64,000 nucleotides of DNA from a virus (lineage: Duplodnaviria > Heunggongvirae > Uroviricota > Caudoviricetes): IMG/VR virus record IMGVR_UViG_3300019378_000003, one strand, 5' to 3'. Position numbers and translations under genes: made by a program. Position 1 is the stretch's first letter; every line of letters starts with the position of its first letter. The notes beneath the pieces were generated by a model. That model did not search any database, had not been told where the DNA came from, and saw nothing but the letters and a program-made list of their open reading frames with translations. Shown in pieces: positions 9,256 through 35,383 of this stretch.

Positions 9256-9273
9256 TTAAGGAGGAAGCTTAAA

Positions 9274-9963: not shown

Positions 9964-9987
9964 TTTAGGAAAGGAGAGTATATAGCT

Positions 9988-11031: not shown

Positions 11032-11054
11032 TGAATAGAGGTTTATAAATACTG

Positions 11055-11086
11055 AGGGTGGGTCTAGCACCCACCCTTATTTTTTG
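11055..11086 (+). terminator. Rho-independent terminator.
   Basis: GGGTGGGT-ctagc-ACCCACCC hairpin followed by TTATTTTTT. Confidence 0.7.
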
Positions 11087-11105
11087 AGAAAAAGGAGTTT
11101 GTACT

Positions 11106-11675: not shown

Positions 11676-11680
11676 TCAAT

Positions 11681-12151
11681 ATGGCGACATCCTTTGAAAC
11701 TATTACAAATAAGTTTCTCGGTAAAATTACCGATGATATGTATTTAGAACTCACCCCAGAAGATACTTTGAGAGACGCTAAATCATTTCTATTGGATGCC
11801 ATTCCTTATTTTGAATTTCCTCGTTTTGCTTTGTATGATTACAACGTAGAGTTGGAAGAATATAATATAGATTTAACCGACGAGGAAATTAACATTCTTG
11901 CTTTGTTGATGAAAACAGCATGGCTTGAACGTTAGATAAATTCTGTTGAACACACTCGAATGAAATATTCCGGCTCTGATTTTAAAATGACCTCTCAAGC
12001 CAACCATTTGTCGAAGCTTTTGCAGTTGAAATCAGAGAATGTTCGTGAGTCTACTCACGCACAGCGTCTTTACAAAAGACGTAAGTTTAATGAAGACGGA
12101 ACGGTTTCTTCAAACTGGTCATGTTTGTTGGATACCAGCGCTATTGAATGA
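11681..12151 (+). CDS. Head-tail connector/adaptor candidate, 156 aa, 1 in-frame TAG.
   Basis: GAAGGAGAG then ATG 11681. Track ORFs 11681 and 11960 are in the same frame, separated by a TAG at 11933. The gene ends at TGA 12149-12151, overlapping the next start (ATGA). Function is positional only. Confidence 0.35.
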
Positions 12152-12450
12152 TTACTACTTATGGTGGCAATTTTCAAGAGGAACTAATTCGAGTGGATTT
12201 ACGCAGACTCATTAATCAGACTTGGAAGTTACTTCCAATGAAAGAAAATAATGAGGACTGGCAAAAATAGTTAGATACAGTCTTAAATGAATTATATGGT
12301 TTGCATGAGATCTTTGGCGGTCAACTCAACTTTCTCGTCTTGCTTTCTAAGCTTGAGGGATTGCCGCAAATCGATAATTTTATGTCTTATAGAGTAATCG
12401 TGTTCGGAGCAATTTCTTTGCTTACTGAACTGATGAACGGATTGAATTAA
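12148..12450 (+). CDS. Hypothetical head-tail joining protein, 100 aa, 1 in-frame TAG.
   Basis: ATG 12148 overlaps the upstream TGA. The gene ends at TAA 12448-12450, overlapping the next ATG (TAATG). It is invisible in the standard-code ORF track because of the TAG at 12268. Confidence 0.35.
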
Positions 12451-13394
12451 TGGAAAATTTGAATCTGTTAAAATTGCGTGCGAAGCATGCCAATAATGAT
12501 CGCCAGCATGATCGCATGGTTAAAGATAAATTGCGTTCTCTTCATCGCGCTTTATTATATTCTTATCAAACAGCGTGGATTAAAAAAGATGGAGTAGAAG
12601 ACGCAGACTATGTTCGTGCTTTAATCAATCCTGATAAAGTAAAATTCGATTATGATGAAAAAATTGTATCAGTCGAATACGAACATGGCTTTGGACCTGG
12701 AGACACTTTTGAATGGAAAAATACTGGAACGCACTGGATTATTCTTAAACAAGAGATGACTGAAGTTGCTTACTTCCGTGGTAATGTCCGTAGATGTCAA
12801 GAACTTTTAATTACTGATCCTGAAACTGGTGATAAAGTTAGCATTTGGGCAGCAGTGCGTGGTCCTGTTGAAACTAAATTAAATACAATTCAAAAAGCGG
12901 GATTAGTAGCCAATGTGCCGAATATGACACTACAATTGTATATTCCGAAAACGGAATAGAATATGCGTTTATTTGAACGATATGTTACTTTTGAATTTGG
13001 TGGACGTTTTTGGCAGATTGTTGCTCCTGATACTATTAGTACTCCAGGAATCATCGAAATTCCTGCTGTTGAAGACTATGAATGTCATCACAGCGATTTA
13101 TTGGTGGAAGTGGTAGATCCTAATCCTCCAGTTGAAGAATATGAAGATACTATTGAAGGCGAAACTTTTGTAAAGCCTTTAGAGCAATCTATTTATACTG
13201 TAACATCTTATAATCCTAATCTTAATTGGGTTGTAACTTTAGCATCAGACAATAAAGATGTTGAAGATACAGTTGAATGGGAAATTCGAGAAGATGGTTC
13301 AATTGCTGTTACTTGGATTTCAATGGTTAGTGGATCTTATGTATTAAAATATGGAGATCTTGAAAAGACCATTATTGTATAGTCACTGTTCTAA
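12450..13394 (+). CDS. Hypothetical head-tail joining protein, 314 aa, 2 in-frame TAG.
   Basis: Track ORFs 12450-12959 and 12963-13382 are in the same frame, separated only by a TAG at 12957. A further TAG at 13380 is read through to TAA 13392-13394. Confidence 0.4.
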
Positions 13395-13405
13395 GGAGGG
13401 ATAAA

Positions 13406-14149
13406 ATGAACCCTCTAATGTTAATGACTGGTGTTGATATTCCATTTCCAGAAATTTAGATGGCTGTTCATTAGCCAACAATTCTAGAAATCTCATATAT
13501 TGGAGAATTGAATTATTTTGCGGGCCTTCAATTATTATGTATTGATAAAAATACATTAGTGTTAAGTTCTGCAGAGGACAATTCTAGATTAGGTTCTATG
13601 AGTAATTTTTAGATATTTATGACAATGATGACTGAACAACAACCTGGCATGGAGGACAAAAAGGCACAAGTTATTTAGGTTTTTGAATTACTCTTCCCAG
13701 GCTATCGTGTTCAGTTTACTCCAAGATGCCTATTTTTTAATAATGGCCAAGGTTCGTCTTTCACTCTTGATGATGTAACTTTTGAGAAATTTCAAGAAAT
13801 ACTTAAACCGCAAGTTTCTATTTTTAAAGGTGCTGATGGTGGTTATAATCCCGTTGGTAGAAAAGCATAGGAAATTGCGAATAAGTTAATGAAGGGTAAA
13901 CAAAAGGTTGCTGAATTGAAAGGTGAAACTCGTAATCAAGGTGGCATTTTGTCTAGATATGTTTCTATTCTCACAATAGGTCTAAATACCATGTCATTTT
14001 AGGACTGTTTGAATTTGACTGTCTATCAAATGTTTGATCTGGTTGAAAGATACGGCCTATATGTCTCGTGGGATTTAGATATAAAGTCTCGGTTAGCTGG
14101 TGGCAAGCCAGAGGATAAACCCGATGACTGGATGAAAAATATACATTGA
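13406..14149 (+). CDS. Hypothetical tail-proximal protein, 247 aa, several in-frame TAG.
   Basis: AAGGAGGG then ATG 13406 in frame 2, ending at TGA 14147-14149. There is no track ORF because of the TAG density. Confidence 0.35.
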
Positions 14150-14171
14150 TTATTAAAGGAGGAAACAACCA

Positions 14172-15233
14172 ATGAAATTTGGCGTACGCGAAATTTGTGA
14201 CGTAGTATTACGTCGTAAGGCCGCTGGTTGGTTCGGTAAGCTTTATTTGGAAAAGGACATGCCTGTTCTTTTCTTTGATACTTTGAAGACCTCTAACCTT
14301 GAAGGCGCAGCTACTACTGTTTATGCTCAGGGTGGTAAAGGTAATCCTCGTCTTGTTGCTTGGGAAGGTGACCGTACCGTTACTTTCACTATGGAAGACG
14401 CATTGATTAGTCCTCAGAGCTTCTCTATTCTTTCTGGTGCTGGTTTCATGGATGCTTCTAGTGAAAAAGCTATCTATGTTCACCAGACCGGTCAGCTTGA
14501 AATTAGTACTGATGGCAATTTGAATTTTGAAACCAAGCCTTCTGCTGGTGAAGCTGGTAAGTTTGCAGATATGTATTTGATGCTTTTGGATGAATATGGT
14601 AATATTAATACTAACTTCATGCCTATTATGATTAAGCCTGAAGGCCGTAGTGATAATGAACCTGGTGTTTATGCAGAATCTTATCCTGTAAATGGCGAAG
14701 GCGAAAGTCTTGTTAATAAGATTAAGGCTTTCATTGTAGATTATAATGAACGTAATAAAACTGTAAATGGTTTTAAGCCATTAGAGTATACTGTTAATGA
14801 AACTCTTATCAAGCCTACTGAAGATGCCTCTGTTGAAGAAATTGCTGCTTACAATAAGGCTAAAGCTAATAACATCGTTATTGGACCTGGTACTGTAGTT
14901 TTTGTTGACTATTATGTAAAGGCTGACACTGGTGTTAAGCAGATTGATATCGAAGCTGATAAGTTTGGTGGATCTTACTATCTTGAAGCTTCTACCTTGT
15001 TCCGTGATCAGGGTACTGGTGAAGACCATCCTGCAGAGTTCGTTATCCCGAACTGCAAGGTTCAGTCTAACTTTACCTTCACCATGGCTCCTTCCGGAGA
15101 TCCTTCTACTTTCACCTTCACAATGGACGCTTTCCCGGACTATACTAAGTTTGATCGCACTAAGAAGGTTCTTGCCGCACTTCAGATTGTTGAAGACAAG
15201 GCTGGCTTCGGCGCTCTTACTGCCAAAGCTTAA
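14172..15233 (+). CDS. Major tail (tube) protein candidate, 353 aa, no TAG.
   Basis: AAAGGAGG then ATG 14172, ending at TAA, followed by a strong terminator. The gene is TAG-free and lies upstream of the tape-measure region. Confidence 0.45.
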   Translation: MKFGVREICDVVLRRKAAGWFGKLYLEKDMPVLFFDTLKTSNLEGAATTVYAQGGKGNPRLVAWEGDRTVTFTMEDALISPQSFSILSGAGFMDASSEKAIYVHQTGQLEISTDGNLNFETKPSAGEAGKFADMYLMLLDEYGNINTNFMPIMIKPEGRSDNEPGVYAESYPVNGEGESLVNKIKAFIVDYNERNKTVNGFKPLEYTVNETLIKPTEDASVEEIAAYNKAKANNIVIGPGTVVFVDYYVKADTGVKQIDIEADKFGGSYYLEASTLFRDQGTGEDHPAEFVIPNCKVQSNFTFTMAPSGDPSTFTFTMDAFPDYTKFDRTKKVLAALQIVEDKAGFGALTAKA

Positions 15234-15251
15234 TTTTTAAACGTCAATATA

Positions 15252-15289
15252 GGGAGATACTAACTTTCGTTAGTATCTCCCTTTTTTTT
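15252..15289 (+). terminator. Rho-independent terminator.
   Basis: GGGAGATACTAAC-tttc-GTTAGTATCTCCC hairpin followed by T8. Confidence 0.75.
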
Positions 15290-15866: not shown

Positions 15867-17108
15867 ATGGCAGGTAGTGTATTTGGAGTTTCTGTTGAAG
15901 AAGCATTTGTAAGAAGTGGTACTGCAGAAGCTATAAAAGATAACCTTACTTCAATGAATGAAGTAAATAGAAGAATATTAAATAATAGTTGTACTATTTT
16001 AGATAATACTTTAAATGAAATTACTATACTTAAAGAATAGTTTATAGGGGAAAATCGTTTATCTAAAGAATATTCTAGAAGAATAGCAACTCGTAAAAAA
16101 GATTCGACAAAAGTAGAATATGGAAGAAAGTTATCAGAATTATTACTTTTAACAAAAAGTCATAAAGCTAAATTAAATCAAAAAATTATTTATGCATTTA
16201 AATTAGAACATAAAATTTTAGATATTTTATCAAACAATTAGACATAGACTGCTTTATTTTCAATATATTTTTATGGTGAAAATCCACAAGAGATTATGCG
16301 TGGAGAAATTAAAACTTCAGATTTATATAATTCAAAATATTTATATATTGATAATGCTGGTAACATTAAATTATCTGCTAAAGTTATTTAGGCAGAAGGA
16401 TTATTTTCAAAAATAACATCTTCTCGCTCTGTAAATGGAGCAATTTCTGATGTAGTTTGGGATGAGATGTTAGCAGCAGATTTAGAGGCATTAGTAGATG
16501 AAACATATAGTTTTTTAAAAGACGTATAGAATAAATATCAAGAAATAAAAGATACTGCATCTAAAAAGCATTTAGGTAATGAATTAGATGCATTACATGA
16601 TGTAACTCGAAAATTTTCAGAAGAATCAAATGCCATTATGTCATTAATTGAAGAAAAATAGGCTGCAATGTATAATTATTTATTCTATGATTAGGGGAAA
16701 AAACCTGCAGGTCGCTTAAACAGAGGTCATTTGGCAGAAGCTTATGAACATATTTATCAAGCAAGATTGGCGGGTCGTGAAGTACCATCAGCTTATGAAG
16801 CATTACAACGTTCATTGGGCGATGATCCATGGTATATCGGTGGTGACGTAGGCAATGTATAGGTTAAAGCTTTTTTTGACAATAATGATCGTCATATCGC
16901 TAGTTATACAAGTATTATATCTTTAGGAAAAACTTTGGTGCAAGTTGTGAAAAATACTGTTAATGCTTTGCAAGAAATTGCTACCGCAGGAACAGAAAGA
17001 ATATTATTAAAATAGCAATCAAATTTTAATAAAGCAAATAAAGTATTAGAGCAATGCACCAGAAAAGAAATTGAGACTATGATGAAAAATAATTTAAAAC
17101 AATCTTGA
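15867..17108 (+). CDS. Hypothetical protein, ~413 aa, ~12 in-frame TAG. Sits in the AT-rich island.
   Basis: AAGGAGG then ATG 15867, in one frame to TGA 17106-17108. The end of the gene overlaps the -35 box of the downstream promoter. I recognise no domain. Confidence 0.35.
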
Positions 17109-17133
17109 CAGATAAAAAATTTTTTGTTATAAT
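17105..17133 (+). promoter_or_regulatory. Consensus sigma70 promoter, TTGACA-N17-TATAAT. Second copy of the motif seen at 1804.
   Basis: 17105-17110 is TTGACA, followed by the spacer gataaaaaattttttgt, then 17128-17133 TATAAT. AAAGGAG and TTG 17166 follow. Confidence 0.6.
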
Positions 17134-17165
17134 ATAATCATTGAAGAGAAAAAGGAGTGAAAATT

Positions 17166-17690
17166 TTGGCTAAAATTTCATTAAGTAAAATTACTCCAAT
17201 TAAAATTGTTGCGCCCGTATTGGTATAGATTTGTGAACAAGATGTAGAAATTATACAATATTTACCCGTACAAGAAAAATTGGCAATGATTGAACGCATT
17301 CTAAATTGGAGTATTGACACTACTGGAGTGTTAAATCCGGTAAAATTAGAAGTATATTCAGTATTAGAAATCATTTCTACTTATACAAATATTAATATTA
17401 CTGATAAGATGATGGAGAATGCTCCAAAAACTTATGATAGTTTAATGATTAATGGCGTAATTGATAAAATTATTGAAAATATTCCAGAAGATGAATATAA
17501 TGCTATTTTTGACGCTATCGAAGAATGTGCTGAAAATATTGTATCTTATTTAAATTCTTTTGCCGGTATGATGAAAACAGTCACTGATAATTATGATGCA
17601 GAAAAAATGAATGTAGAAGGTTTAATGAATGATCTAGGAGAACTTGGAAAAGATAGTTTAGTTAAAGATGTTCTTGAAAAAATTGGTTAA
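17166..17690 (+). CDS. Acidic small protein, possible tail assembly chaperone. 174 aa, 1 in-frame TAG.
   Basis: TTG 17166 is in frame with track ORF 17280-17690, through a TAG at 17226. The gene ends at TAA. The protein is acidic and lies immediately upstream of the tape-measure gene. Confidence 0.35.
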
Positions 17691-17726: not shown

Positions 17727-17765
17727 AAAGGAAAGATGTAAGTGAATACATCTTTCCTTTTTTTA
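17727..17765 (+). terminator. Rho-independent terminator or attenuator between the chaperone-like gene and the tape-measure gene.
   Basis: Perfect 14-bp stem AAAGGAAAGATGTA-agtgaa-TACATCTTTCCTTT followed by TTTT. Confidence 0.7.
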
Positions 17766-17787
17766 TAGAGAGAAAGGAGTTTACAGT

Positions 17788-20700
17788 ATGGCTCAAGGAA
17801 CTACTTAGTGGACTTTGTAGATTAGTGCTGACACTAGTCGAGCTAAAAAAGATATTAATAATTTAGTATAGAGCTTAAATAAAGTTAATACACTAAATTT
17901 AGATTAGCTCGGTATGTCCACACAAATTCGTGAGGCTGCGACTGCTGCGCAATAGTTAAAATTGCATTTATAGGCAGCAACTAATGTCAATACTGGTCAA
18001 TTAAATCTTGTAGAATTTAATAAAAGTATTTAGCAATCAGGATAGTCAATGGCATCGCTTATGGCTACTTTGGCTCAAGGTGGTTAGACTGGTCAACAGG
18101 CATTCCAATAGATGGCAACTACTATTGCAAATACTTAGGTGCCGATAAAACAAACAAATAAATTATTATCTAATATGATGACAACTCTTAAAAATACTGT
18201 TAAGTGGGAATTGTCATCTATGTTTATTCGTGGTTTACGCACTTCAATCACTGGCGCTATTGGATATGTTAAAGATTTAAATGGTGCTTTAAATGATATC
18301 CGTATTGTTACAGGTAAAAGTGTTGAAGAAATGGCTCGTTTTACTGATCAGGCGCGTGCTGCGGCGAGGGAATTATCAACCACAACTAAAGCATTCACTG
18401 ACGCTTCTTTGATTTATTTCCAATAGGGTGACTCGATGGAAATGGCTGCTAAGAAAGCGGCGATTACTATTAAAGCAGCAAATGCCTCTTTTGGATCTAC
18501 GGCTTCTGAAATGGCAGAACATTTAACTGCTGTTTGGAATTCTTATCAAGTTGGCGCAGAAGAGTTAGAACATTATGTTGATATAATGGCGAAGCTTGGT
18601 GCGAACACTGCAACCAGTATGGAAGAAATTGCTACTTCAATGCAAAAAGTTGCTGCTACTGCGAATACTGTTGGCGTTTCTATGGAACAAGTTTCTTCGA
18701 TTATTGCCACGGTATCTTCTGTTACTCGCGAATCTGCAGAATCAATTGGTACTTCTTTTAAAACAATTTTTGCTCGTATTGGTGACTTAAAATTAGGAGA
18801 GACTCTTGAAGACGGTGTAGATCTTGGACAAGTATCTTCTGTTTTAGATAAAATTGGAGTTTCTATTTTAGATGCCAATGGGCAAATGCGAGACATGGGC
18901 GCAATCGTTGAAGATTTAATGGGAAAATGGCAGACTATGACTCGAGCAGAGCAAACTGCTGTGGCATAGGTTGTAGCTGGTAAGCGTCAATATACTCAAT
19001 TAATTGCTTTAATGGAAAATGATGAAGCGTATAAAAAAAATAAAAGTTTAGCAGAGAATTCTGATGGTGCACTGCAAGGAATGCAAGATATTCATGCTGA
19101 AAGTGCTGAAGCTGCAGCTGCGCGCACGAAAGAATCTATTTAGACTTTATATAGTACGCTTTTAAATGATAAAGCTTTGATTGGTTTTTAGAAAACAATT
19201 AAAGGTATTGTTGATAATGTTACTAATTTAGCTAAATCATTAGGTGGTCTTAAAGGCATAGTAGGAGCAGTTGGTGCGATTTTAATGCGTACATTTAGTG
19301 GAAAAATTGCTTCTACTATTAAATCAATGGGTGCTGGTATAGCTACTTTTATGACAAATGGTTCATATAAATAGTAGTATTTACAGACTTTAGAGAGGAC
19401 TAATAGTGAATTATCAAATAGTCGCAGTTGGGGAGATACAGCTTCTTTATAGGCTACTAGCAAATTAATTGACTTAAAAAGCAAATTGCTTAATATGGAA
19501 AATTCTTTAACAACAGCACAAGCTCAGCAAATGCAGTTAGCTTTAAGTGGAGCAAGCGAACAAATTGGTACTTTAAATTAGTTAGAACAAGAATACTTAG
19601 ATGTCAAAAGAGCAATTGAATCTGGTACTAGCAGTATGGCTGGTTGGGCAGCGCAAACTTATTAGGTTAAATAGAAACATAATACGGTAAACATGACATT
19701 TAACAAATAGCTTGCAGCACAAATGAGTAGTTAGCATTTTATGAAGGGATCAGGCGACAATAGAATGTCTGCAGGAGGATTCTTTTCTGAGAATGCAATA
19801 CTTAAGGCTAATAATGGGGCGACTGCTGCGAATATGTTGCCACAAATTAATTAGTTAAATCAAATTTCGTCTATTGGACAACAAACTGCCAGAGCTTTAG
19901 AGTAGATTTAGAATCCAGCAAAATTGACTGAATAGGAATTTGCCAAAATTACACAATAGGTTGAGCAGATGAAAGCTGCTTTAAAAGGTACCGCTCGAGC
20001 AAATGCTTTAGATGGAATTACAGCAGAAACATTAAGAACAAAAGAAGGTATTAAATAGTTAAGTGACGCAATTACTTTATTAAATGAAAAATCTCAAACT
20101 GATTTTAATGGATTTACTACGGCTTTTAGGGCGGCATTGAACGCTATGCCTGATGGTGCCTTGAAAACTAGATTAAGTACTTTATTTGATGAATTTTTGA
20201 AAGATTCTGATCATGGTGCAGAAGCACTCTAGCGCTTTAGGTTACAAGCTGAGGCAGTAATGGGTAGTTTGAGTGGTACTGAATCTGCGTTAGATAAACT
20301 AAATGGAAAAATGAATCAAGCCTTTGGTGCGATTAGCAAAGGTGTTGGTACTGCAATGAGTGCAGTATCTGGATTTAATATGCTATCTTAGAGTACTTAG
20401 CAATTAGCCTCTGGTAGCGATAATTTAAGTAGTAATATCGCGACATTGTTGAGTGGTTTAATGATGATTATTTCCATTGCACCTGCTATTGGTACAGCAT
20501 TGACTACTGCGATGGGCCCAATCGGTTGGATTATTGGTGCAATTGCGGCGATTGGTGTTGCAGTTGCGGCAGTTACTGTTGGTATTAGTAAAGCTAGAAA
20601 AGAAGCGTATCAAGCTAAACAAGAATCTAAATTAGAAAAAATTTAGGAAGAAAATGAAATACAAAATGAAGAAGTAAATAATAATCATAATTTAATTAAA

Positions 20701-23700
20701 AGTTATAATGATTTATACGCAACTTATTTAGAAACTGGCGAAGGACAAGAAGAACTTGCTGCGAGCGCAAGAGCATTAGCGGATGCTTATGGATTAGTTG
20801 GCGCGAATGTATTAATCGCAAGCGGTAATTTTAAAGAGTTTAATAATTAGCTTGCTTAGCATATGGGTTTTGATCAAGAATTAAGTTATTATCGTAGACA
20901 AAAAAATACTTTAATCGGTGCTTTTGCTGATAATAGTAAAAATTCAGTTTATTAGATGAATGATTCTAATATCATGGAATTTGAAGGAGAACTAAGTCCA
21001 ACATATTCAGGACCAATGGTTGGTAGTTCTTTATATACTAGCGTGCCGAGTGAAACAGATCCATAGGTAGAACGTACTGTAGCTACGGGAGTTACTTCAT
21101 ATTATGATGCTGCGCAATAGGCTTTGGCTCTTGATCCATCTTTATTTTTAACATATGAAGGTCCTACTTCACAAGTTAAACAATATTATTCTCCTTTGGG
21201 CTGGTCGGCGAGAAATAAAAATCCCACAGGAAGACGTGTAAGTGCTGAACAGGCAGGAAATATTTATGGCTATTATGATACAATGTTTGCAGGCAATAAA
21301 GATTATGCTGATGAAGCTTTTATCGCTGTAATGAATCAAGCGCGAGACAAAGAAGGAAATCCGCTTAATATAGACTGGTAGAGTATTATTGATACAGCAT
21401 GGAATAATGATCAAGATATAGGAGAAGCTATCACAGCAGCATTAATAGAACAAAATCCTGATTGGGAAAGTGTAATATAGCTAAGCGCTTTTGAGTATGT
21501 TGATGATGGATTATCTTATGGAAGCGTTAATACAGAATTAGCTGATGTAGTAAATAAATGGAATACTAAATTTACTGACGCTTTTTTTGGTGAAAATGGT
21601 TTATTCGGACAAACAGATTATTTGCACGAAGTTCTAGGAGAAGATTTGTCGTTAGATTGGTCTTCTTTAACTGGAGAAGAAAAAGTTAAAAAATTTACAC
21701 AAATCGCGGATTCAATTGATGCTATTGATGTTGAACTGGAAGACGTAAAGCTTAAAATGAGTGAATATGACGAAAACAGTCCTGAGTATATGATGCTTGA
21801 AGATTATTATAATTATTTGCAAGGTGTATAGACTACTTTTAAAGATATTATTAATTATGATGATTATATAGCTGACGGTTCGACAGTAGCAGAAGCTATT
21901 GCCGAGATCGAAGAAGTTGAATCAATGGAAGCAAAAATTATAGCATTAAAAGCTTCTATGGGACAGTTTATGGGTCAATCAGAAGACACCATGGGATTTA
22001 ATGCATTTTTTGATGGGGTAAATAGAATGGAAGATGCTATTGATTCAACAGCGGCGTCATATGAAGAATTACAATAGTATTTAGAACAAGAAAACGGACA
22101 ATTTGTCAAAGATGCTGAAGGTAATTATAAAATATAGGCTGGAATGGAAAAAGAGTATGCTGCAGCACGAAGCAAATTAGCATCATAGTTATTATTAGAT
22201 TACACTGCATTTGATGATTATGTTTATATGTATCAAGATTTGATATCTTTATTTGATAATCAAAATGAAATTGATATTGCGGCGAATTTTTTAGATATTT
22301 TTGATATTAATTCAGTAGAAGAAGTTGACACTGCTTTTTATTATGAATTATAGCAATTCATTCAGAGAGATGCAGAAATGGCAAAGGGTATGTTGACAGC
22401 ATATCAAAATCAAAGATAGATATGGCTTAATTAGGGTTTTAATAATGACGAAATTTAGGAAAAAACACAATAGTGGTTTGATGATATTGGTGAAGAAGTA
22501 TTAGGTAAAATGATAATAGCAAATCAAGACACAGCCGCTTTTAATGCAGCAAATAAAATGAGCAATTCTGCACAAACTTGGGCTAAAGAGTTTAAAGACA
22601 ACGACGGAGAAATGTCAATTGATGAAGCAACAGATATGTACAAATAGTATGCTGAATATCAAAAAGAATTTGAGGAACACGACTTAGGTGTAATTAAATC
22701 TTGGGATGAATTTGTTGCGATGGATTATACCGAACGAGCCGCATATTTAGCAACATTAGCAGAACAATCTGAAGATAATGCTGAGCGATTAGCAGAAATA
22801 GCATTAGCTTCTGCTAGCGATGTTCGTGCGGCGTGGGAAGCGGAACATGGATATAATAGAGATTCATTTGAAACATTTCGCACAGGATATAATCAATATG
22901 CCGCAGCAGTAGCTGAAGATGGCTATAATGTAACATATGATACTGTTGATGGAAATACTGTTGCAGTAGTAAAAGATACAGATGGTCATATTATTGATGA
23001 AGATACCTTCCGTCAAAATACTGGATATACTTTTAGTGATGCAATTCAATATTAGGGAGCTTCTTCTTTAATTGCTGCAGGTAGTCAAGTTTATCTTGAG
23101 GAAGATAATGCTATAGCGACAGTTGAAGCTTTAAAATTAGTTTCTGATGGTGTTCTTACTGCGGAGGAAAAAATGACTGCAGCTTCTGACGCAGTTGCAG
23201 CTTTATCCAAAGGCTTAGAACATTTTAATGAGACAGGTCAAATTAGTGTTGAAGTATTTAAAACATTAGGCAAACTGGGAATTCAGGTTAATAAAGATGA
23301 TATAAAAAATATTCAAGATTTTATTAAATTGATGAATCAGGCGCGTTAGAAAGGTCAATAGGCTGTTGATAGTCAAATTGCTGAATATAATAAATCTTAT
23401 GCATAGCAATATGGTGCTTTTAATGTAAATTAGACTTGGGATATGTCTTTAGTTGAGACAAATGCAAACTATAAAGCACGTTATGATGCTTGGGCAAAAA
23501 TTATGGATTTAATGACTCAAGTAGAAGGTATAGATGCTGAAATTAATAATGCTAATGCTCAAATAACACAATAGCAAATTGATTTATTTGATGCATAGAT
23601 GGCATCTTTACAATAGTCTAGAGATGAATTACAAAAAACTGCAGAAGCGATGAAAGAAGCTGCGGATATTTTATCGGGTGCTATTGAAGATGGTTCTTTG

Positions 23701-26700
23701 TCTTTTGCTGATTAGGTTAAATTAGATGCAGCTGGAATTGCTGCATGGGAAGAAGGCGCTACTTATGCTGAAAGGATTGAAGCTGCTGCATTTGGTGCTG
23801 CAAAAGCAACTAATTAGGCGATGACAAATCAATTAGATTTAAATACTGCTATTGATTAGGCTGAATCATTATTTAATATTTATACTAATTTAACTAGTGG
23901 AAACATAACTTTAAAAGATAGTTCATTATTTGATTCTTCTGATAGTCTTATTTCTTGGTTAATGGATCCTCAATTTGATGCATCAGGTTTAAGCGATGGA
24001 GCAAAAAATGCGATTATTGAAGCAGATAAAATTGTTCGATAGACTTTAGATGTAAATACAGCGACTACAGGACAATATTGGAAAGCGATGCAAGATTAGC
24101 TTAAGATTATGGACCAAGAAGGAGCAGAAGCTTTAGCTTTAATTATGGCTGAAGGTAAAGACAGTATTGTTTCTTTATATAGTGAATTAGGATAGCATGA
24201 AGCAGATTTGGCAAATCAATTTGTTGAAGATTGGATGAATGCATTTTAGACTGTCGCTGATATGCGTAAATCTATTTTAATGGGTGAAGATATTAGTGAT
24301 GATTTAACTTCTAGCTTTGATAATTTTAATCAAATTGCAAATCAATATTCGGGCGGTGGTGCGGCTCTTGTAGCAGACCAATTAAGTGGTAATTTAGATT
24401 TAGCTAAATTAACTCTTCCCGATCCAGATAAAATGGTTGAAGGTATTCGTGATGCTCGCGGTCTTGGTAAAAATGATACTATTTTTACTACAGATTCTTA
24501 TGGCACAAAACATGCATCTACTTGGTGGGAAGATATTGGTGCACGAATGGGTATGGACCGTAATGCAACCAAAGCAGATGGTACGGCCATGTATGCAGAA
24601 GGTGCAGACGGTGATGCGGAATACGTAAAGGCAGTACAAGAAAGAATCACTCCATAGTTAGAGACTTTACTTAAAGGTTATGATTTAACTGGTACAGATT
24701 TTGAGACTATTGGTGATGTTATTTTAGGATATTTTGCAGGAGCGCCAGAAGCAATTGCTATATTAAATGATGCTGCGAATAAAACTTATGAAAATTCAGA
24801 AGCTTATGGTGAATATCTTGAAAAGGAAAATATTTTAAGAGAAGCAGAAGCAGCATATTAGACAGAGGTTGAAGAACAACAAAAAATTCAAGATGAAGCT
24901 CTTGGCTTTGCAGATGCAACAGAAGCTATTCATGCTTTAGCTCCAGAGGATCGTGATGCGGCTAGTATTGCATCTATTTTAGAATAGCAAGGTATTACTT
25001 AGGATGATTATATTGCTGCTCTTCAAGAAAAAGGTTATGATGTTTCTAGTTTAGAAGATATCGCAGGATTGAGTAATGATGCATTATTAGGTGCGGAAGA
25101 TGCTTTTTAGACTGATGCTACTGAAGCAGGTGCTATTATTATTTCTGCTGGCGAAGCTTTTAAAGCAATTGTAACCGGAGAGGGAGCATTAGGTGAAGAT
25201 GGTACTGGTATTACTCTTGGCGATACAACTTTTACAGAAGGTGCTGGATTCGCTGAAACTAGTGATGCAGTATAGCCAATGATGGAAACTGTTACCGAAA
25301 ATACTGAAGCACAAACTGTTTTAGCAGAAGGAATTTCAACAGTTGATCCTAGAGAAGATTGGGAAACTGAAATGGGACATTTTGGTTTAGATGCTAAAGA
25401 AGTAGATGAACTGGGTGATTCAATTCAAAAAATGGCTAAAGAATCTGAATTGCTTGGAGATAATTTAGAGACTGATGCTGAAGCAGCGGATAAAGTCGCA
25501 AAAACTTTTAAGCGTTATAATAAAGCTGTTGATCAAGTTGCAGATAGTTATGATGATTGGAAGAAGGCTTTAAAAGGTAATAATATTGATGAATAGGCTA
25601 AAGCATTAAAAGAAATGGATAAAGCTTTTTCAGATATGCTTGATTTAGATTATGATAGCTTATCAGATGATTTTGTCCAAAATGCAGAAAATCTAGAATT
25701 AATGAAAGAAGCTGCAGAAGGCAATGAAGAAGCTTTTGATTAGTTGCAAGCAAAAGCAGCGGCAGATTTTATTATTGAAGGACAAGTTCAAACAGAATTT
25801 GATCAAGAATCATTTGATGCTGCGGCCATGGAATTGGCAACTGCTTATGATGATTTGCCAATTGGAGAACCAATTACACTTGGTGAAAACACTAATGTAA
25901 GCCCTGCTTTCTGGGCAGCGTGCGAACAAATTTTACAAGGTTTTGCAGCAACTGCAGCGGGTGCAGCGCAAGCAGAATAGGCTTTTGCTTCTCTGGGATA
26001 TGACGCAGAAGTAGAAGTTGTTCCACAAGAAACTCCTGGATATTCTATTTCTTATCCAGTATTTACACAAGGTCCTTCTGTTGATGTTGGTGGTCCTGGG
26101 CAAACTATGGCTACGGTTGAAGCTTCTACTGCTACTATTGACGTTCCTGGTTATACGCAAAATGTTTTAGCTATTAAATCTATTACCCCAAATGGCGCAG
26201 GCTTTGGCGGAAATGTCAGAGGCGGCGGTGGAGGAGGAGGTGGAGGTGGAGGAGGAGGCTCCAAAAAGTCCACTCATGATAAACGTAAAGCTCCAGAACG
26301 GTATCATGAAAATACTAAAAATTATGATCGAATTTCTGAAGCACTTGAAAAAGTAAATAAAGCTAAAGATAGAGCTTTTGGTAAATCTTATCTTAAAAAT
26401 CTCGAGAAAGAAAGAGAATTATTAAATGCTCAAGTAAACCTCCTTAAACAAAAAGAAGATGAAATTCAAAATTATTATGATGAAGATTTAACTAATCTTC
26501 AAAATGAACTTAATGCTTTAATGGGTGTATTAGGTGGAGAAAATATTGCATTAGATATTGATCCTAATACTTTAAATATTAATAACTGGGAAGAAATTGA
26601 AGCTAAAATTACTGAATTATATAATAAAAAAGCTGATTTAAAAATGTCTGATGAAGAATGGGAAAAAATTACAGAGCAATTAGAAAAATATGAAGAAATG

Positions 26701-29175
26701 AGAGATCAATACGAAGAGACTGTTGCTCTTCTTGCTGAGAACGGTTTAACTATTGAAGATCTTTTAAATCAAATGTCCGAGCTTGCTCTTGAAGAAATTA
26801 CTTATAAAGTTGAATATCAAGTTGAATTAAATGACGCAGATTTAGAACTTCTTGAATATTATCAGGAAGTTTTTGAAGATGACTTAGGAAGCGCAAGTGA
26901 ATTAATGGCCAATCTTTCTAATTAGGCAGGAATTGCTCAAAGTAATTTAAGCATTTTGGAAACTGGATTAAACGAGCTTAATGCGGCTTATGCAGCTGGT
27001 GAAATTAATGCAGCAGATTATCAAGAAGGTATTGCAGATATTAATAGTCAAATGATAGATTAGTTAAGTGAATTGCATGATATTCAAGATGAAATTGCAG
27101 AATTGTATGCTGATACTCTGGATATGGCTCAAGATGAAATGGATGCTCATTTAGACCATTTAGATCATATTGCAGATGTTATGGAGCATTATGCAGAAAT
27201 TTTCGATTTAATGGGTCAAGGTACAGGTCGAGCTTATAAGAATTCTTTGATGGATATTTAGATTGCCGCGAATAAAGAATCATTAACTGCATAGTCAGAT
27301 TTGTTTAATGAATTACTTGAACGCAAAAAAGAATTTGAAGCAAATATAGATGAAAATGGTAATTTCTCCACAGAACTTGAATAGCAACAATATGAAGCAT
27401 TACTTGAAACCTTAACAGAAGTTCATGGCAATATGATGGATGCTGTTGCAGAAGGCATGGATCTTCTTGCTGCAAAATATGAAAATACTATTGAAAAGAT
27501 TTTTGAAGATTTTGAAGAAAGAATGCTTGGTGCCAATCAGTCAATAGCTGATGTGGCAGATAAGTATGAATACTATCAAGAAACTCAAAATCGTCAATTA
27601 AGTGCGGCGCAAGAACTTTATGAAATGTCTAAATTAAATCGTTAGATAGAGCAATCTATTGAAGATAGTACCACCAAAGCTAATAAATAGATCCTTAAAG
27701 ATTTACAAGCTCAAATTAATGCAAGAGCAGAATTGAAAGATATGACTGAATATGATATTGAAATGATGAACTTACAATATCAATTAGTATTAAAACAAAT
27801 GGCTCTTGAAGATGCTCAAAATGCAAAGAGTGTAGTAAGACTTACTCGCGATAATGATGGTAATTATGCTTATCAGTATACTGCTGATGATGAAAAAGTT
27901 GCTTCTGCATATCAAGAATATGAAGATGTATTACAACAAATTAATGATCTTGCTTCTGGACGAGTTGGAGAACTTGAATAGGCAATGTTGGATGCACAGC
28001 AAGAATATGCTGATGCCGCAAAAGAAATTGCTTTGGATATGACTTTAACTGAAACCGAGCGTCAAGCAAAATTAGAAGAATTGGCTAAGAGATATGAAGA
28101 AACTTTACTTTATATCCAAGAAGAATATGGCTACGCTACGAGCGATTTAAAGAATAATTTGGCAACTACTTCAGATTGGTATAATACTACTCTGATAGAA
28201 GACAGTAATGCTGCGCAAGAACAAGTAGCAGATATGATTAAAAATGCTGAAACTTGGGCACAAGAATATGCTAATATGTTAACTGGTGAAAATGGTTCTG
28301 TTCTAAGCACTTGGAAAGATTATGCTGATGCTATTGCTACAATGTCTGAATTTATGGAAACTGCCTTAACAGAAGAAGGTATGAATAATTATCAAGCTGC
28401 CGCAGAGGCTGCAGGTCAAGCTGCCGCGGATGTAGTAACTATGCTTGGTGATGAATTAACAGATATTAATGCTGTAACACAAGCTTGGAAAGACTAGGCT
28501 GCTGCGATGGACGAAGCAATTAAACGTTATGAAACTTTGGCCGCAAAGATGAATGATGTTATGCGCATGCTTGCTGAATTGGAAGAGGCTAAAGGGCCTG
28601 CATTAGGAGATGCTTCTAGTAATACTTCTGATGATGGTAAAGATGTTTCTTTCGCTGATCCTGAAATTCTTGCAGCAGTATTTGGAGAAGAACTTGCTTC
28701 TCAATATACTGAAGGCAAAATTACTTAGGATTAGTTACTTGCAGAAATTATTGGCACAGTAGATAAAACGCAAGTTCAATGGGATGATTTAGAAGATGCC
28801 ATGTAGGTATTGTGGGAATATCAATTAGACAAAGATAAAGATGAAACTAATGAAGAATATAAAAAAGCAAAAGAATTAATTGATGCCACTGGATTGAATT
28901 TAGAAGAAATTTGGGCATAGCTTGAAGCGCAAACGTAGGCTGAAATGGCGAGTATGTCTTCTTGGGCTATGGCATAGACTTTGATTAAAGATTCTACAGT
29001 TAATTATAATACTACTTAGAATATTACAATGACAAATGAATTCCCGAACGTTGAAAGTATAGAAGATATTAAATAGGCATTTGAAGAATTATTCTTATAT
29101 GCTTCTTAGTATGTTGATAGCGATAAAGCTAAAAAAACTTCTGCTAGTGGCGGAGGTGGAGGAGGAGGGCATTAA
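17788..29175 (+). CDS. Tail tape measure protein, 3795 aa. About 100 in-frame TAG, all in one frame.
   Basis: Sixteen track ORFs from 18139 to 28728 all share frame 1. The checked junctions contain only TAG. The gene starts at AGAAAGGAG plus ATG 17788 and ends at TAA 29173-29175 inside a terminator hairpin. The N-terminal ~400 aa match the TP901-family tape-measure core (...GKSVEEMARFTDQARAAARELSTT...SIGTSFKTIFARIGDL...). A hydrophobic segment lies at 20446-20560. A Gly13 run lies at 26218-26260. Confidence 0.8.
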
Positions 29176-29190
29176 GCCCTCCTTTTTTTT
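29164..29190 (+). terminator. Rho-independent terminator containing the tape-measure stop codon.
   Basis: GGAGGGC-attaa-GCCCTCC hairpin followed by T8. Confidence 0.7.
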
Positions 29191-29266
29191 ATTGGGTAAT
29201 AACCTATAATTTATTTTAGATAATCTTTACGAAAATTAGAGTTATTGAGTAAAAGGAGATGAAATT

Positions 29267-32200
29267 GTGAATAAAGATACTATAAAATCTGCAGTTTTAG
29301 ATAGTATAGCATTAGTTGCCAATAAAACGGCATCTAATCTTGCTTTTGATAAAACAATAGAATGCAGAGTAGTTAGTGTCGAAAAAAAAGAATTTGGCAT
29401 TTACATGGTTGAATCTGATGAAGCTAAATTCGAAGCATATGCAACTGGCACTAATACTTATTATGCAAATGATATAGTTTATGTCACAATTCCAGGTGGA
29501 GATTTTAAACGACAAAAATTTATTATAGGTCGTAAAACTGATGAAAATGATGCAAGTTCAGTTTATAATTTGAAATTTCCATTTGATGATTTTATTAAAC
29601 TAACACAAATTGATTTAACTACTATTGAAGAAGCGAAAGCTTTAGCAGAATTAAATTATAATAATACTGTTGATAATATTAATAGTAAATCTCATATTAT
29701 GGATTTTGGCTAGGCTCAAGAAGCATTAAAAAAAGCAGAAGAAGACTATAAGGCTTAGCTAGAATATATTGATAAAACGTATGAAGTACAATCTCCTGTA
29801 GATACTGGTTTTTTGGCGAATTATAGTCAAGATAATAATATTCATATTTATGGAGTAAATTTTGTACAACCTATTGTAGGAATGTCTAAACTTGGTATTG
29901 AATTAGAAGTATAGACATTGTTAGGAGATTTCCATCCTATTAATGGTTTATATGGATTATAGATTGATGTACATGGTATTATAGGTCCTACAGAAGAAGT
30001 GGAATCTTATGAACTTACTGAATCTTTTTTATTTTCTAATAAAGATATGTATGGTAATTCATATGCATATTATAATCCTTATATTCAGTAGAAAGTATTA
30101 GATATTTCTAATTTTAAAGAAGTTCATTCTGTAAATATTTTCTTTGTATAGGATTGCATGTTTTATGATGAAGAAGGTAAATTAATCCCTTATGAAAAAG
30201 ATGAAATTGATGAAGTTACAGGAGAACATGAGAGAGGTTTCTTACCGAAAAATATTTTCTTAACTAATTTTAAGGCTTATTTTGGTTTAGCTGGTTCAGA
30301 ACTTAATGAAGAAAAATTATATCTTTATACTTATGATCCATTATGGTTTAATAAAGATAGTGAAGGATATAATGAAAAAACTTTACGTTTTCAGTGGGTT
30401 CATATTAAAGACGATAAGAGCGGCACTATATTGTTTAGTAAACCAGAAGATATTGATACTTTTAATAATGCATTAAGAAAAGAAATTTTCGGTGAAAATA
30501 ATGATCATCCAACTAATGAGCAATTAATTGCTTATGAGAATAGAAAATTATAGATTTGTTGGTATATTGAAGATTTAGATGAAATTGCTTCAGCGGATGA
30601 AATAGCTGAGAGTTTAGGTTCTTTATATGCTGGCAATAGATGGAAAGTAATTACTGATAATAAGGCTGAAGCTTTAGATGAATATGGCAATCCAAAAGTT
30701 GGTTATTATTATGATAGTGGTTTCCCTAAAGGCTCTAATTCTTCAGTCTTTGAATATAGTATTAATTTTAATAATTTTAATCGCGACGAAAAAAATCCCA
30801 CGATTTATACATATGCAAGATGTAAATATAAAGTAGCAGTTATTTTTGGTACTAATAAATATTTTTCATCTGAATTAACTTTCAAAAATTTTGCATCTTT
30901 AAATGGAACGGTTGAAGAGGGGCATACTGAAAATGCCGATATTATTTTTAGATGTTTTTCTGGTAGACGCTCTGAAGATGGTAAATATACAATTGAATGG
31001 GACGATAATTCTTCTATTGGTCGTTTTTATGTTTATGACGAAAATGACAATATTTTAATGGACAGTGATGGAAGACGTTTTTCTGACATTACTTATTATA
31101 TGCAACTTTGGCATAGAGATCCAGATTATCCGCAGAATTATATTCCATTAATGTATGAAAAATATGATAATTCTGAAGATGCTGAAGATGGACATCAAAT
31201 TACTAATATTAATTTTACTACAAAATGGTCTTTCTTTGATAATAGTACAATGTTGCGCAGTAGCAATACTCCTAATCTTACCGACGAAGAAGTTTAGGCT
31301 TTTGTTGAATTGCTCGGAATGCCAAATGTTGTAAAGAAAGAAGTTACCACTGAAAACGGTACTGAATTAATAATAGATTTTGATGACCCAGATATTAAAG
31401 CTTTACGAGAAATTACTCGAAGTTTTACGATTGAAGATCATTTATATTCTTATAAAAAGAATAATGAAGTAGTAGCAATTGTAGACAAAAATCATCAAAA
31501 ATATTATGCGCATAAAGATTTTCAGTTTGGTCGAGCAAATTCTCAAGGTACTGAATATACAGCTACAATTGTTTTGAAAAAAGTCGGCAATATTGAAGGT
31601 GCTGATACACAATTAGTTTCTGGAAAAAGATTTAGCTTAGAATGTTAGATTTATGACAAAGATCATAAATTAGCTAGATTTGACCATGAGATACAATACG
31701 ATTGGCAATTATTGAATGAAGAACAATGTTATATTAAAGTCGATAATAATAATGCTGGAGCTATTTATTCAGGTACTTGGTATAATTTTAAAGAAGACAA
31801 AAAAACACCAAATGCGGCACCTGCTTTTAAAGTAACAATTAAGAAAGCAGGAGAGCATGATATTTATGCAAAACGTGGTTTCTTGGCAGGACCTGAAAAA
31901 CTTAATAATGTTCCATATGTCGCTATTATACCAGAGCGAGTAGAATATCGATCTGACGGCAGTCATCCTTATTATTATAATAACTGGTTCACTGTTTATG
32001 AAGCAGGAACCAATAAACAATTATATACTGATTGGACTATCAATAAGGATTTAAGCACTCCACATAGTTATATTACTCAAAAGGACGATAAATTAGTTGT
32101 AGTTCATACTGATATTATACCAGATGGAGCGATAATTCCAAAACATATTCCTGCAAAAACAGTTACTGAAAATAATGAAGAAGATACTGAAATTTCAGCA

Positions 32201-35200
32201 GAACATAATGATTATAAATTTGAAATGCAAGAATGGGGCAGTATTGGATTCTTGTGGGATAACCGTTTTGAAAATACAGTTTTATAGCTAGAAGGTAATT
32301 GTAAAGGATAGGTAATACGGCAAGCAATTGTCTTTGATTAGAATGTATATCCTTCATCTCTTGTTAATACTTGGGATGGAGTTGCTCTTTCTGTTGATGA
32401 AGCTACTGGCTCTATTTTAGCAAATCGTATTGCGACAGGTACTAAAGATAATAGCGGTAGATTTACTGGTATTATGATGGGTGATTGGTCAGCATATGGT
32501 GATGAGTCTGTTGATATTGCTGGTATTTATGGTTTTGAAAATGGTCAAGAGACTTTTGGATTTTTGAAAGATGGTTCTGGATTTATTGGTGCTGCTGGCG
32601 CAGGTTAGATTCGATTTGATGGCCGAAATGCCATGATTGCCAGCGCATTAAAAAATGAATTTGGAACTCCCTCTTGTTATATTAATCTTAATCCTGCTAG
32701 AGTTGGTAATCCTAATTCTGTTTTAAATAGTGATAGTCAATATTTCTTATATTGTGAAACTGATAGAGCAAAAGATGCAGAAGTGGGATTAGATTAGTCT
32801 TGGGTTAATAAATTTTTTAAGAAAAAACGCAAAGTCGATGCTGATGGTAATTATATTACAGATGAATTTGATCAGTATGTTTACGAAGAAAATGATAAAG
32901 ATTATTTCATTGTTGACCCTACTCGTGGTGTATTAACTACTGGTGGTATTATTGCCAGATACGGTTATATTGGTGACTGGCTTATTGATAAAGGTGGTTT
33001 ATCATGGTATTCAGAATAGGGCTTGACAAAAGAAAATTTTTATGATACAATATATTTTGGAAATTGGACTAGAAATCCTTATTGTATTATGTATCGTGAA
33101 GAATACGAAAAAGAAAAAGAAGATACTTATAAATCAATAAAAAATACTTATGATAAAAAACGAGAAGAATTAACTAAATAGTATGAAGAAGATTTAAAGA
33201 AAATTAAAATGACTGGTACAATTAAAGATGCTTAGGAGCTAGAAAAATAGTATAAAAAATCTTTAGATGAATTAAATACAGAAGAGAATAATGAGTAGAG
33301 TGCTGCATTAGAAGCTTTTACTAAAGAGAGTAAATATCAACAATATTTAATGTCTGCTGGACGATTAAATTAGAATCGATTTAATTATGCTAATAAAGGT
33401 GTAATGAATTTTGGTGTAACTGCAGATGGATATTTATTTAGCCAGTCTGGTCGCATCGGTGGTTGGATTATTGGTGCAGACACTTTAACTTCTGCTAAAA
33501 CAAGTGAAATTGTTGATGATTAGGGAAATATTATATCTGTTCCTGCGGTTGAATTGAATGGTGTTGAAGGAACCGCGACATTTGGAGTTATTAACTCTGC
33601 AGGTCAAATGCAAGGTCAAGTTAATTTGGCGGGCTATTAGATGATTGGATAGAGTGATAATACTTCTTATGCTAATTTATTAAGTACTACCTCTATTAGA
33701 ACCTTAGATAATAGCAAAGCAGATTCTTTTAACTTTAAAATGACGTTAATTAGTAACGGTAATGTAGATGAAGATTAGTTTGTAATTTCTGAGAAATATG
33801 CTGTTACAGCCGTAGAATATTAGTATGGAGAAAGTGATAACGAAACTATTTCTCCTACAGCTTGGGTTTAGGATTATATTGGAAACTCATTAAATAATAT
33901 TGCAGTAAGAGGAAATCCTAAAAAATTCTTATGGGTGAAACAAATTTTTACGATATAGCCTATGGAAGGAAAATCTTTTCCGTTAGAAACTGATGCAATT
34001 TGTCTTGGAGAAAAAGTTAATGAAGAAATTTATTATAATGGGAAAGTAGAGCAATGTTATTTAAAATTAAAAGCTATTGAAATGTAGTATAATATTGTTG
34101 CAGAAAATGAATCGATTGATGTAAATTCTACTTCTTGGAAAACAATTGATGAACTTAAAAATAAAGATGAGAAAATTGCAATCACTAAAACAACACCAAA
34201 AATTATTACTAAATTAATTATATCATCTGTAGAGCATACTGTTGTCGATGAATCTAGTAAAGAACAATCTAAATTAGATTTTACTTATAATATTGGCATT
34301 ACAAGTGCAACATTTGAATTATTTAATACTGATAATGCTTCTGGAAATATTGGCAAAACAGAGGATATTGCAATAAAGGGTGACACTTCAACTTTATCAG
34401 GAGAGACAGGACAAACTTTTCAAATAGGACATTTTATGGCCAATAGTAAAGTAAAATTTGAATAGTTACACACTTGGTCTCTTCTTGAAGAACAAAAAGG
34501 TTATTCATTAGGAATGTCCTTACAAACAGGAGAAGGAAATTCTTATATTGTTAAAACTGATGAATCCACTGGCGACACTACGGAAGAATATAATACAACT
34601 AAATTTTATATTTTCCTTGCTCCAACAATGGCACGATTAGCGAATAGATTTGCTTCACTTGGCACATATGCAAATCCATGGGATTATATATATGCTGGTA
34701 CCTCAATATTTATTAATGGCGATGCAGCTGCAACTTAGCGATGGGCAGAAGATAATATTAGATAGCCTTTGTGGAATAAAATTGTTGCAGTAAACAATTT
34801 GGCATCTACAGCTTATAAGAAAGCAAAAGACGCTGCGAGCAGAGCTCATTAGGCGGCAAACACTGCAAATGAAGCATTGAAATAGACTTTTGTTAGTGCT
34901 AAATTTAATATGACTGGCGGAGGATATGGAAAACAATTAGTATTAATTCGAAAAAATGGAGCGACTTTAACCCTCGCTCCTGTCGCATCGCTTATACATA
35001 AACATACTCCCACTGTAACATGTTCTGAATCTAATGGCGAGATTACAATTAAAGTTTCTTTAAGCAATACTTCAATGAATGGTGAGGGCTCTGATTCTTT
35101 TAATATGGCCAGTACCGCTTTTTTCAGGAAACATGCATATGCTTCAGGAGGTAAACTTGATAAAGGCGGTCTCAATGGAGGATATACTGAAAGATATCGT

Positions 35201-35383
35201 AATATTACTGTTTCTGCGATACTGGCCGAAGATGGAACTACATTGGTTGAAAAATAGACTTATGATTGCCCAGATTATGGTAATGGATATAATAAAGGTT
35301 ATGAGACAGGCTACGAAGCAGGAAAAAAAGCTGGCTATAGTTTAGGGTATTCCGATGGACTCGCTGATGCTCGCGGAGCTTAA
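29267..35383 (+). CDS. Giant tail/baseplate protein, 2038 aa, many in-frame TAG.
   Basis: GGAG then GTG 29267. Track ORFs 29267, 30158, 31058, 31310, 31712, 34514 and 34910 are all frame 2. I translated 32288-33070 by hand and found TAG only, no TAA or TGA. The gene ends at TAA 35381-35383. Confidence 0.6.

Follow-up and report, generated by a model that had tools for sequence, protein, structure and literature searches.

Does the 11.4 kb frame at positions 17788-29175 of this viral DNA encode a single protein, and does that protein measure the phage tail along its whole length? The question arises in a 64-kb stretch (64,000 nucleotides, hereafter the window) of IMG/VR record IMGVR_UViG_3300019378_000003, in which an original prediction, made from the letters alone, had placed a giant tape-measure protein (TMP). 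In siphophages, the TMP lies in the lumen of the tail tube, where it determines by its length how many tube rings are stacked; the C-terminal end of the TMP is located in the tail tip, and its hydrophobic segments assist in opening the host membrane at ejection. We propose, with a probability of about 0.8, that the gene encodes the 3,795-residue tail TMP of a large-genome, SPbeta-like, long-tailed siphophage of a TAG-recoded ‘code 15’ gut clade related to phAss-1, and that this TMP is a modular whole-length ruler.

Reading frame and genetic code

The coding sequence (CDS; 17788-29175, + strand) is 11,388 nt long and comprises 3,795 codons followed by TAA. It starts with an ATG, preceded 8 nt upstream by a ribosome-binding site AAAGGAG (17773-17779, + strand) read directly from the sequence. 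Ninety-two TAG codons lie in frame as sense codons (most likely Gln). Neither TAA nor TGA occurs inside the frame before the terminal TAA at 29173-29175, and no frame break that would split the product by a programmed event was found within the window.

Read with table 11, as by standard-code gene callers, the TMP gene is shredded into ~25 short open reading frames (ORFs); the same happened in the phAss-1 GenBank record (L004, OQ749652.1), where the 3,150-codon TMP region at 5261-14713 is annotated as ~20 short CDSs, each a ‘hypothetical protein’. With TAG as sense, the 64-kb window turns into a single, tightly packed + strand phage structural operon in the order large terminase, portal, major capsid protein, tail tube, TMP gene and several very large distal-tail ORFs. 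Because the whole window resolves in this way, the open TMP frame is real and no chance effect. The stretch 17788-29175 is a real TMP gene, open only with TAG as a sense codon. A pseudogene or non-coding reading was rejected, frame, homologues and context being all intact.

TAG is present in 25 of the 33 window ORFs as called. The same TAG-only recoding pattern is seen in phAss-1 and in three related sequences, the metagenomic contig L008 (154.8 kb, ENA ERZ27297809 k141_296137) and the Logan sequences L009 (SRR33917137_28707) and L006 (ERR14721020_4642). In the TMP gene, 11 TAG fall among the first 117 codons, the first one at codon 7; in all four recoded TMPs examined the first TAG stands at codon 6-10. 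Without a TAG-reading suppressor, translation of the TMP would stop after a 6-residue peptide. With its first TAG at codon 7 and 92 TAG in total, the gene is, we propose, translationally gated to late infection.

Codon usage differs between window genes. In the capsid and tube genes Gln is encoded almost only by CAG, most other genes using CAA and TAG; TAG makes up 15-62% of Gln-type codons in many non-capsid, non-tube genes. The TAG-free window genes (9274-11031, 14172-15233, 47141-48373 and 59000-60349) probably encode abundant virion proteins (major capsid, tube, others).

Family assignment and homologues

The tape-measure assignment held, on family matches at the N-terminus and on the position of the gene in the tail module. 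As predicted, the N-terminus carries a TP901-type core. TIGR01760 (tape_meas_TP901) matches amino acids (aa) 163-497 (18274-19278, + strand) with 114.5 bits against a cut-off of 28.8, and PF10145 matches aa 191-396 with 102.4 bits against a cut-off of 33.2 (E = 3.8e-29). Sixteen PHROG families match over ~aa 15-530, 14 of them annotated as TMP. The protein's N-terminal part is a TP901-family TMP core. Beyond ~aa 530 no Pfam, PHROG or NCBIfam match was obtained except sub-threshold matches to VbhA and phrog_5378 (C-terminal part).

To collect relatives, a TAG-free 177-aa piece of the core served as query for an exhaustive HMMER search of 1.84 billion cluster representatives, with 7,516 hits; the relatives counted below are the 150 nearest 50%-identity cluster representatives. 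The core lies inside a conserved N-terminal module (~aa 1-530), where BLAST depth reaches 120-144 of the 150 relatives.

Two homologues, P0005 (3,776 aa) and P0004 (3,721 aa), both unannotated and undescribed, are colinear with the window TMP over 89% of its length at ~30-53% identity. In the alignment with P0005, residues 1-1048 pair with 1-1047 at 53% identity and 1271-3584 with 1242-3531 at 30%; P0004 aligns in the same manner. The P0005 gene, carried by L008, has 54 in-frame TAG, no other stop, and is unbroken. The phAss-1 TMP is likewise an unbroken frame of 3,150 codons with 110 TAG. On alignment, the whole protein is shown to be colinear with independently assembled homologues of nearly equal length.

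Single TMP genes are also found in standard-code relatives: MT835936 (2,939 aa), VRE9_3 (2,673 aa) and the phage Perkons (2,439 aa). We considered a fusion of two genes at a glycine tract described below and rejected it, because the standard-code relatives carry both halves in one TMP, with a homologous C-terminal part and the same terminal motif.

Among 50,697 phage records (OQ749652 included), megablast found none that matched the TMP gene, and two scans of IMG/VR with single-sequence peptide patterns, one from the C-terminal module and one from the core, gave no match. The nearest relatives of the capsid protein are from uncultured human-gut phages including phAss-1 (NCBI ‘Caudoviricetes code 15 clade’), and more distant ones belong to cultured large-genome, long-tailed siphophages of Firmicutes: Enterococcus VRE9/EF1/H1, Mammaliicoccus, Tsamsa-like Bacillus, Clostridioides LIBA-type and Brevibacillus Sundance phages. 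In the records of Enterococcus phages EF1/EF5 (MF001358/MF001361), the TMPs are mislabelled ‘cobalt-zinc-cadmium resistance protein’.

Organisation of the protein

Downstream of the N-terminal module, hydrophobicity reveals a hairpin of two membrane-span-like segments at aa 880-936 (20425-20595, + strand). The hydrophobic stretch noticed earlier at 20446-20560 does exist, the peptide quoted for it mapping to 20458-20586 (aa 891-933), within the longer hairpin. A hydrophobic segment at a similar distance from the N-terminus occurs in 50 of 60 proteins of at least 3,000 aa (window TMP included), with a median start at aa 924.

The hairpin is followed by a variable, very acidic spacer of ~1,800 aa (aa 937-2737; 20596-25998, + strand), fast-evolving and without a known family match. 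BLAST alignment depth is low in the spacer, yet it is colinear with those of P0005 and P0004. Its segment aa 1049-1270 is hypervariable, rich in aromatic residues and proline, and aligns to almost nothing. A word-index search of aa 1001-2500 against 5.8 billion proteins gave no match; this null reflects the method, because the exhaustive HMMER search with the core found full-length homologues that align there.

The spacer ends at a small element of four predicted beta strands (aa 2738-2801; 25999-26190, + strand), modelled with modest confidence by single-sequence AlphaFold2 (predicted local distance difference test score, pLDDT, ~70). For the window TMP, such low-confidence modelling covered only the TAG-free piece aa 2732-3045. 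The same piece contains a tract of 13 glycines (aa 2812-2824; 26221-26259, + strand), modelled as disordered and followed by a basic patch SKKSTHDKRKAPERY; the prediction had located it to within 3 nt (26218-26260). We read the Gly13 tract as a flexible hinge that would join the spacer to the C-terminal module. Gly-rich tracts are found at the homologous position in phAss-1, L006 and a further relative, L007, and their distance to the C-terminus is near-constant across the family.

The conserved C-terminal module (aa 2825-3775, ~950 aa; 26260-29112, + strand) ends in the family motif NFPNV...IKQAFEELFLYASQY. It matches P0001 (42% identity) and P0002, with a BLAST depth of 60-84, and can be aligned with the C-terminal TMP parts of Enterococcus phages, phAss-1, MT835936, L006 and L007. 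The conserved motif at its start, after the Gly tract, lies 874-1,178 aa from the C-terminus (median 985) whatever the total length. The terminal motif (NFPN..., EIxxAFxxLxxxAxQY) is common to the relatives, where only 5-9 residues follow QY/QF.

In the window TMP, a lineage-specific extension of 20 residues, VDSDKAKKTSASGGGGGGGH, is added after this motif (29113-29172, + strand). Its glycine codons form the G-rich 5′ arm of an intrinsic-terminator-like hairpin (29158-29190, + strand; -21 kcal/mol, z = -2.8), and the poly-Gly end of the protein arises because the frame reads into this arm. The C-terminus had been given as GGGGGGH; it does end in poly-Gly and His, with seven glycines and not six (GGGGGGGH). 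The hairpin has a 13-bp stem (29158-29170 / 29176-29188), and its loop AUUAA (29171-29175) holds the stop codon UAA, just as had been described. The U run counts eight U and ends at 29190, six of them making outer G-U and A-U stem pairs. P0005, by contrast, is without the G7H tail: the stop codon on L008 lies upstream of the homologous GGGAGGGC/GCCCTCCC hairpin.

The window TMP has a net charge of -347; values in relatives run from -36 (Perkons) to -441, and within the family acidity per residue tends to rise with TMP length (Spearman -0.35). ‘Long acidic helical repeats’ had been proposed for 26300-28700. The region is acidic and probably helical, but no repeat family was detected in the TMP by TRF, self-BLAST or block-wise Smith-Waterman comparison against shuffles.

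Length of the protein and of the tail

The window TMP had been called one of the longest known, which did not hold within its own lineage. The TMP gp96 of Thermus phage P23-45 has 5,002 aa, and among the 150 nearest representatives 59 have at least 3,000 aa, 24 at least 3,795, 17 at least 4,000 and one 5,731. Clade TMPs run from ~2,300 to ~5,700 residues, the closest relatives of the window TMP having 3,680-3,780 aa. Its size is ordinary in its own clade and in keeping with that of its closest relatives; more noteworthy than the window gene itself are the pattern across the clade and the 5,731-aa relative. That relative (P0039) is encoded at 1846-19041 of L009 by a 17.2-kb gene of 5,731 codons with 110 TAG, no TAA or TGA and no internal repeats. 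Longer than the P23-45 TMP, it would predict a tail of ~0.86-0.89 µm.

The spacer measures 1,185-2,850 aa in the 21 relatives in which both flanking landmarks were located. Spacer length tracks total length (r = 0.99), and nearly all of the total-length variation in the relatives checked is spacer length. Conversely, P0004, P0005 and the window TMP have near-equal lengths (3,721, 3,776 and 3,795 aa) despite only ~30% identity in the spacer, which points to selection on length rather than on sequence. With fixed end modules and variation only in the acidic spacer, the TMPs of the clade form a natural series for testing the ruler model.

Two phages provide a calibration. The 2,439-aa TMP of the cultured siphophage Perkons corresponds to a tail of 380.6 ± 16 nm, or 0.156 nm per residue, and the 5,002-aa TMP of P23-45 to a tail of ~800 nm. 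Both support a whole-length ruler. Extrapolation from the gene alone, at 0.15-0.156 nm per residue, predicts for the window phage a tail of ~570-590 nm; with the Perkons ratio, the earlier expectation of a tail several hundred nm long stands. In human-gut TAG-recoded SPbeta-like siphophages, tail lengths appear to span ~0.45-0.9 µm, and the question is raised why long tails are favoured in gut Firmicute hosts.

Proposed mechanism and alternative readings

We propose the following scheme. The window TMP would probably form a long, mostly helical thread in the lumen of the tail tube, as in other siphophages, and tube polymerisation would stop once the thread is covered, so that TMP length would set tail length. 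The acidic spacer (aa 937-2737) would be the adjustable ruler between two fixed ends. The C-terminal module would probably be anchored in the tail tip, and the hydrophobic hairpin (aa 880-936) would probably enter the host membrane at ejection.

Several points weigh against this scheme or against what it assumes. The tail length is extrapolated, and the residue placed at TAG is deduced from homologues. In the N-terminal module, standard-code homologues have Gln opposite TAG more often than any other residue (13 of 45; at position 213 in three of three), which fits code 15; in the poorly aligned C-terminal module it was found only once in 16. TAG is most likely read as Gln, in a code confirmed by metaproteomics in other gut phages (PMC9523058). 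No tRNA gene was found by ARAGORN in the 64-kb window, hence no suppressor tRNA(CUA) there, so its gene must lie in another part of the genome unless the suppressor is supplied by other means. In phAss-1, three suppressor tRNA genes are reported elsewhere in the genome (PMC10607447).

A further point concerns the spacer. The 3.5-residue hydrophobic periodicity is strong in aa 1-880, moderate elsewhere and absent from aa 941-1800. For the homologous stretch of P0005, a single-sequence AlphaFold2 model of 1,200 aa shows short helices and loops (66% helix, pLDDT 39.6), not long helices. Part of the spacer may therefore not be extended coiled coil. It may be more compact than a continuous helix, giving less than 0.15 nm per residue.

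Taken further, these features would fit a rival reading in which the polypeptide is one but only partly a ruler, with ~aa 1040-1800 as a compact or ejected functional domain and a tail clearly shorter than 570 nm. The composition of the region would agree, aromatic residues reaching 12-13% in aa 941-1800 and proline 4% in aa 1001-1250, and enzymes embedded in giant TMPs have a precedent in the RNA polymerase fused to the P23-45 TMP. However, Pfam, PHROG and NCBIfam revealed no domain there in the window TMP, nor did they in four larger relatives; the colinear homologue P0005 matched no PDB sequence, and an HExxH motif is absent from the window TMP. The region is also the least conserved of the protein, with its barely alignable segment, unlike an enzyme, and Perkons obeys the whole-length rule. 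We regard a part-length ruler as unlikely, even though it is the alternative that survives best.

The search for cargo was the one that the original prediction had suggested. Neither a peptidase, nor a lysozyme, nor any other enzyme or cargo domain was found in the window TMP with Pfam, NCBIfam and PHROG, and the negatives extend to the four larger relatives, within a range of 3,776-4,770 aa. Motif scans (DxDxD, HExxH, lysozyme-like) were uninformative, DxDxD occurring only as two chance-level copies outside ~aa 1040-1800. A long shot would be that this non-periodic, aromatic-rich, hypervariable stretch is not ruler but a fast-evolving domain that is ejected before the DNA and enters the host, such as an effector for anti-defence or for penetration of the envelope. 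Such a role would have its counterpart in the virion RNA polymerase that the P23-45 TMP carries as a fusion and, if true, would make giant gut-phage TMPs carriers of diversifying cargo.

The single, whole-length ruler could also be a primary product that is later cut, for instance at the Gly13 hinge, into a ruler fragment from the N-terminal side and a second, separate one of ~970 aa from the C-terminal side. TMPs are proteolytically processed in other phages, as lambda gpH to H* and T5 pb2. A flexible Gly tract, modelled as disordered and followed by a basic patch, stands at a constant distance from the C-terminus across the clade (the motif that follows it at a median of ~985 aa), as a cleavage site might. 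No protease site or protease gene was identified, however, and VRE9_3 and MT835936, both standard-code, retain the downstream motif without any Gly tract. Cleavage after assembly would moreover leave the ruler function unchanged. We consider processing of this kind quite improbable.

Least probable by far is that translation splits the frame, by a programmed frameshift or by stops at some TAG, so that the 3,795-aa protein is never made. TAG is a stop in the standard code, and the TMP of L006 does lie in two frames, with parts of 1,596 and 1,384 aa that overlap by 46 nt at 4747-4792. This junction resembles a 1-nt deletion, since adding one base restores …GELAAAMSELEQ…, and it is without a recognisable slippery heptamer; the break may reflect misassembly, a frameshift or a true pseudogene. 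The window has no frame break, independent homologues keep one unbroken frame, and standard-code relatives have single TMPs. Termination at TAG would yield 6 residues and then ~90 fragments, most of them without a start codon or ribosome-binding site.

Comparison with known phages

Giant TAG-recoded TMPs of this clade have been known since 2023 (PMC10607447), and the window gene is a somewhat longer added case. The TMPs of Phassvirus described there (phAss-1 OQ749652, BK046881_ctckW2 and BK025033_ct6IQ4) have 3,149-3,209 aa (Int J Mol Sci 2023, PMC10607447). The window shares with Phassvirus a TAG-recoded human-gut genome of siphophage type and a giant TMP with N-terminal core, C-terminal module and terminal motif. 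The architecture is also the same in detail, the Phassvirus TMPs having a hydrophobic hairpin near aa 912-983, a Gly-rich tract before the C-terminal module and a net charge of -293. The major capsid protein is 51% identical to that of phAss-1.

The two differ in length and in sequence. The window TMP is ~600-650 aa (roughly 20%) longer, its two modules are only 30% and 26% identical to those of Phassvirus, and the spacer is unalignable. Members of Phassvirus share 82.7-86.4% nucleotide identity, whereas the window TMP gene has no megablast match to phAss-1; it therefore belongs to a different genus-level lineage. Membership of Phassvirus was rejected on this ground and on protein identities of 26-51%.

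Among cultured large-genome siphophages of Firmicutes, homology in the N-terminal core (30-33% identity) extends to Psychrobacillus phage Perkons and Enterococcus phages VRE9_1-4, EF1, EF5 and H1; in the Enterococcus phages the C-terminal module (22%) and the terminal motif are shared as well. Their capsid and tail-tube families are those of the window (phrog_4088, 2729, 6123, 30570). In contrast to the window TMP, their TMPs use the standard code, are 30-36% shorter and carry a net charge of only -36 to -100, and those of VRE9_3 and Perkons are without a Gly run of four or more.

The link with Bacillus phage SPbeta is made by the N-terminal query, which matches SPbeta-group TMPs, and by the neighbouring genes on L008, which carry Pfam families named after SPbeta. 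The SPbeta TMP, YomI, has ~2,285 aa and bears cell-wall lytic domains. Unlike YomI, the window TMP has no detectable lytic domain.

Thermus phage P23-45/P74-26 offers a parallel, its giant TMP with membrane segments (gp96) setting a siphophage tail of extreme length, ~800 nm to nearly 1 µm. The lineage is an unrelated one without recoding, and gp96 combines an N-terminal virion RNA polymerase (DFDGD motif) with a metallopeptidase domain; neither can be detected in the window TMP.

Neighbouring genes and control signals

The genes around the TMP gene follow the order tube homologue (14172-15233), YomW-like, YomO-like, TMP, then large distal-tail ORFs. L008 is syntenic with the window, its neighbouring genes carrying the Pfam families YonB, YomV, YomU_Tube, YomW and YomO and being 52-82% identical to their window counterparts where detectable. 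SPbeta-family (PF27xxx) assignments of the window genes were transferred from precomputed hits on L008. The structural module is SPbeta-like in that these families are named after SPbeta virion proteins. The tube homologue is 61% identical to the YomU_Tube gene of L008. Immediately 3′ of it lies a terminator-like hairpin at 15251-15282 (14 bp, -22.5 kcal/mol, z = -8.4), a position compatible with attenuation that would separate the abundant tube protein from low-copy genes downstream.

Directly upstream of the TMP gene stands the YomO-like gene (17165-17690, + strand; 174 aa, 1 TAG), with an AAAGGAG ribosome-binding site before its TTG start at 17165. It is 69% identical to L008 9386-9910, which has a weak PF27287 YomO match, and also matches phrog_30570. 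Its N-terminal extension matches the L008 homologue; calling ATG starts only misplaces the gene, giving 134 aa with 0 TAG instead of the corrected 174-aa frame with 1 TAG. By gene position only, its product is a candidate TMP or tail-assembly chaperone.

The YomO-like gene is adjoined on its upstream side by a promoter-like site (17105-17133, + strand), a perfect match to the sigma-70 consensus (TTGACA, 17 nt spacer, TATAAT, upstream TG; scored 12/12) and a consensus match only. A terminator-like hairpin (17727-17760, + strand; 14-bp stem then T run, -17.6 kcal/mol, z = -5.3) separates it from the TMP gene.

The first large structural ORF after the TMP gene (29267-35383, 2,038 aa) has a probable GTG start at 29267 and a ribosome-binding site at 29252-29258; its L006 homologue bears an SH3_3 domain. 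Further very large structural ORFs follow downstream at 41814-46385 (1,523 aa) and 51765-58760 (2,331 aa).

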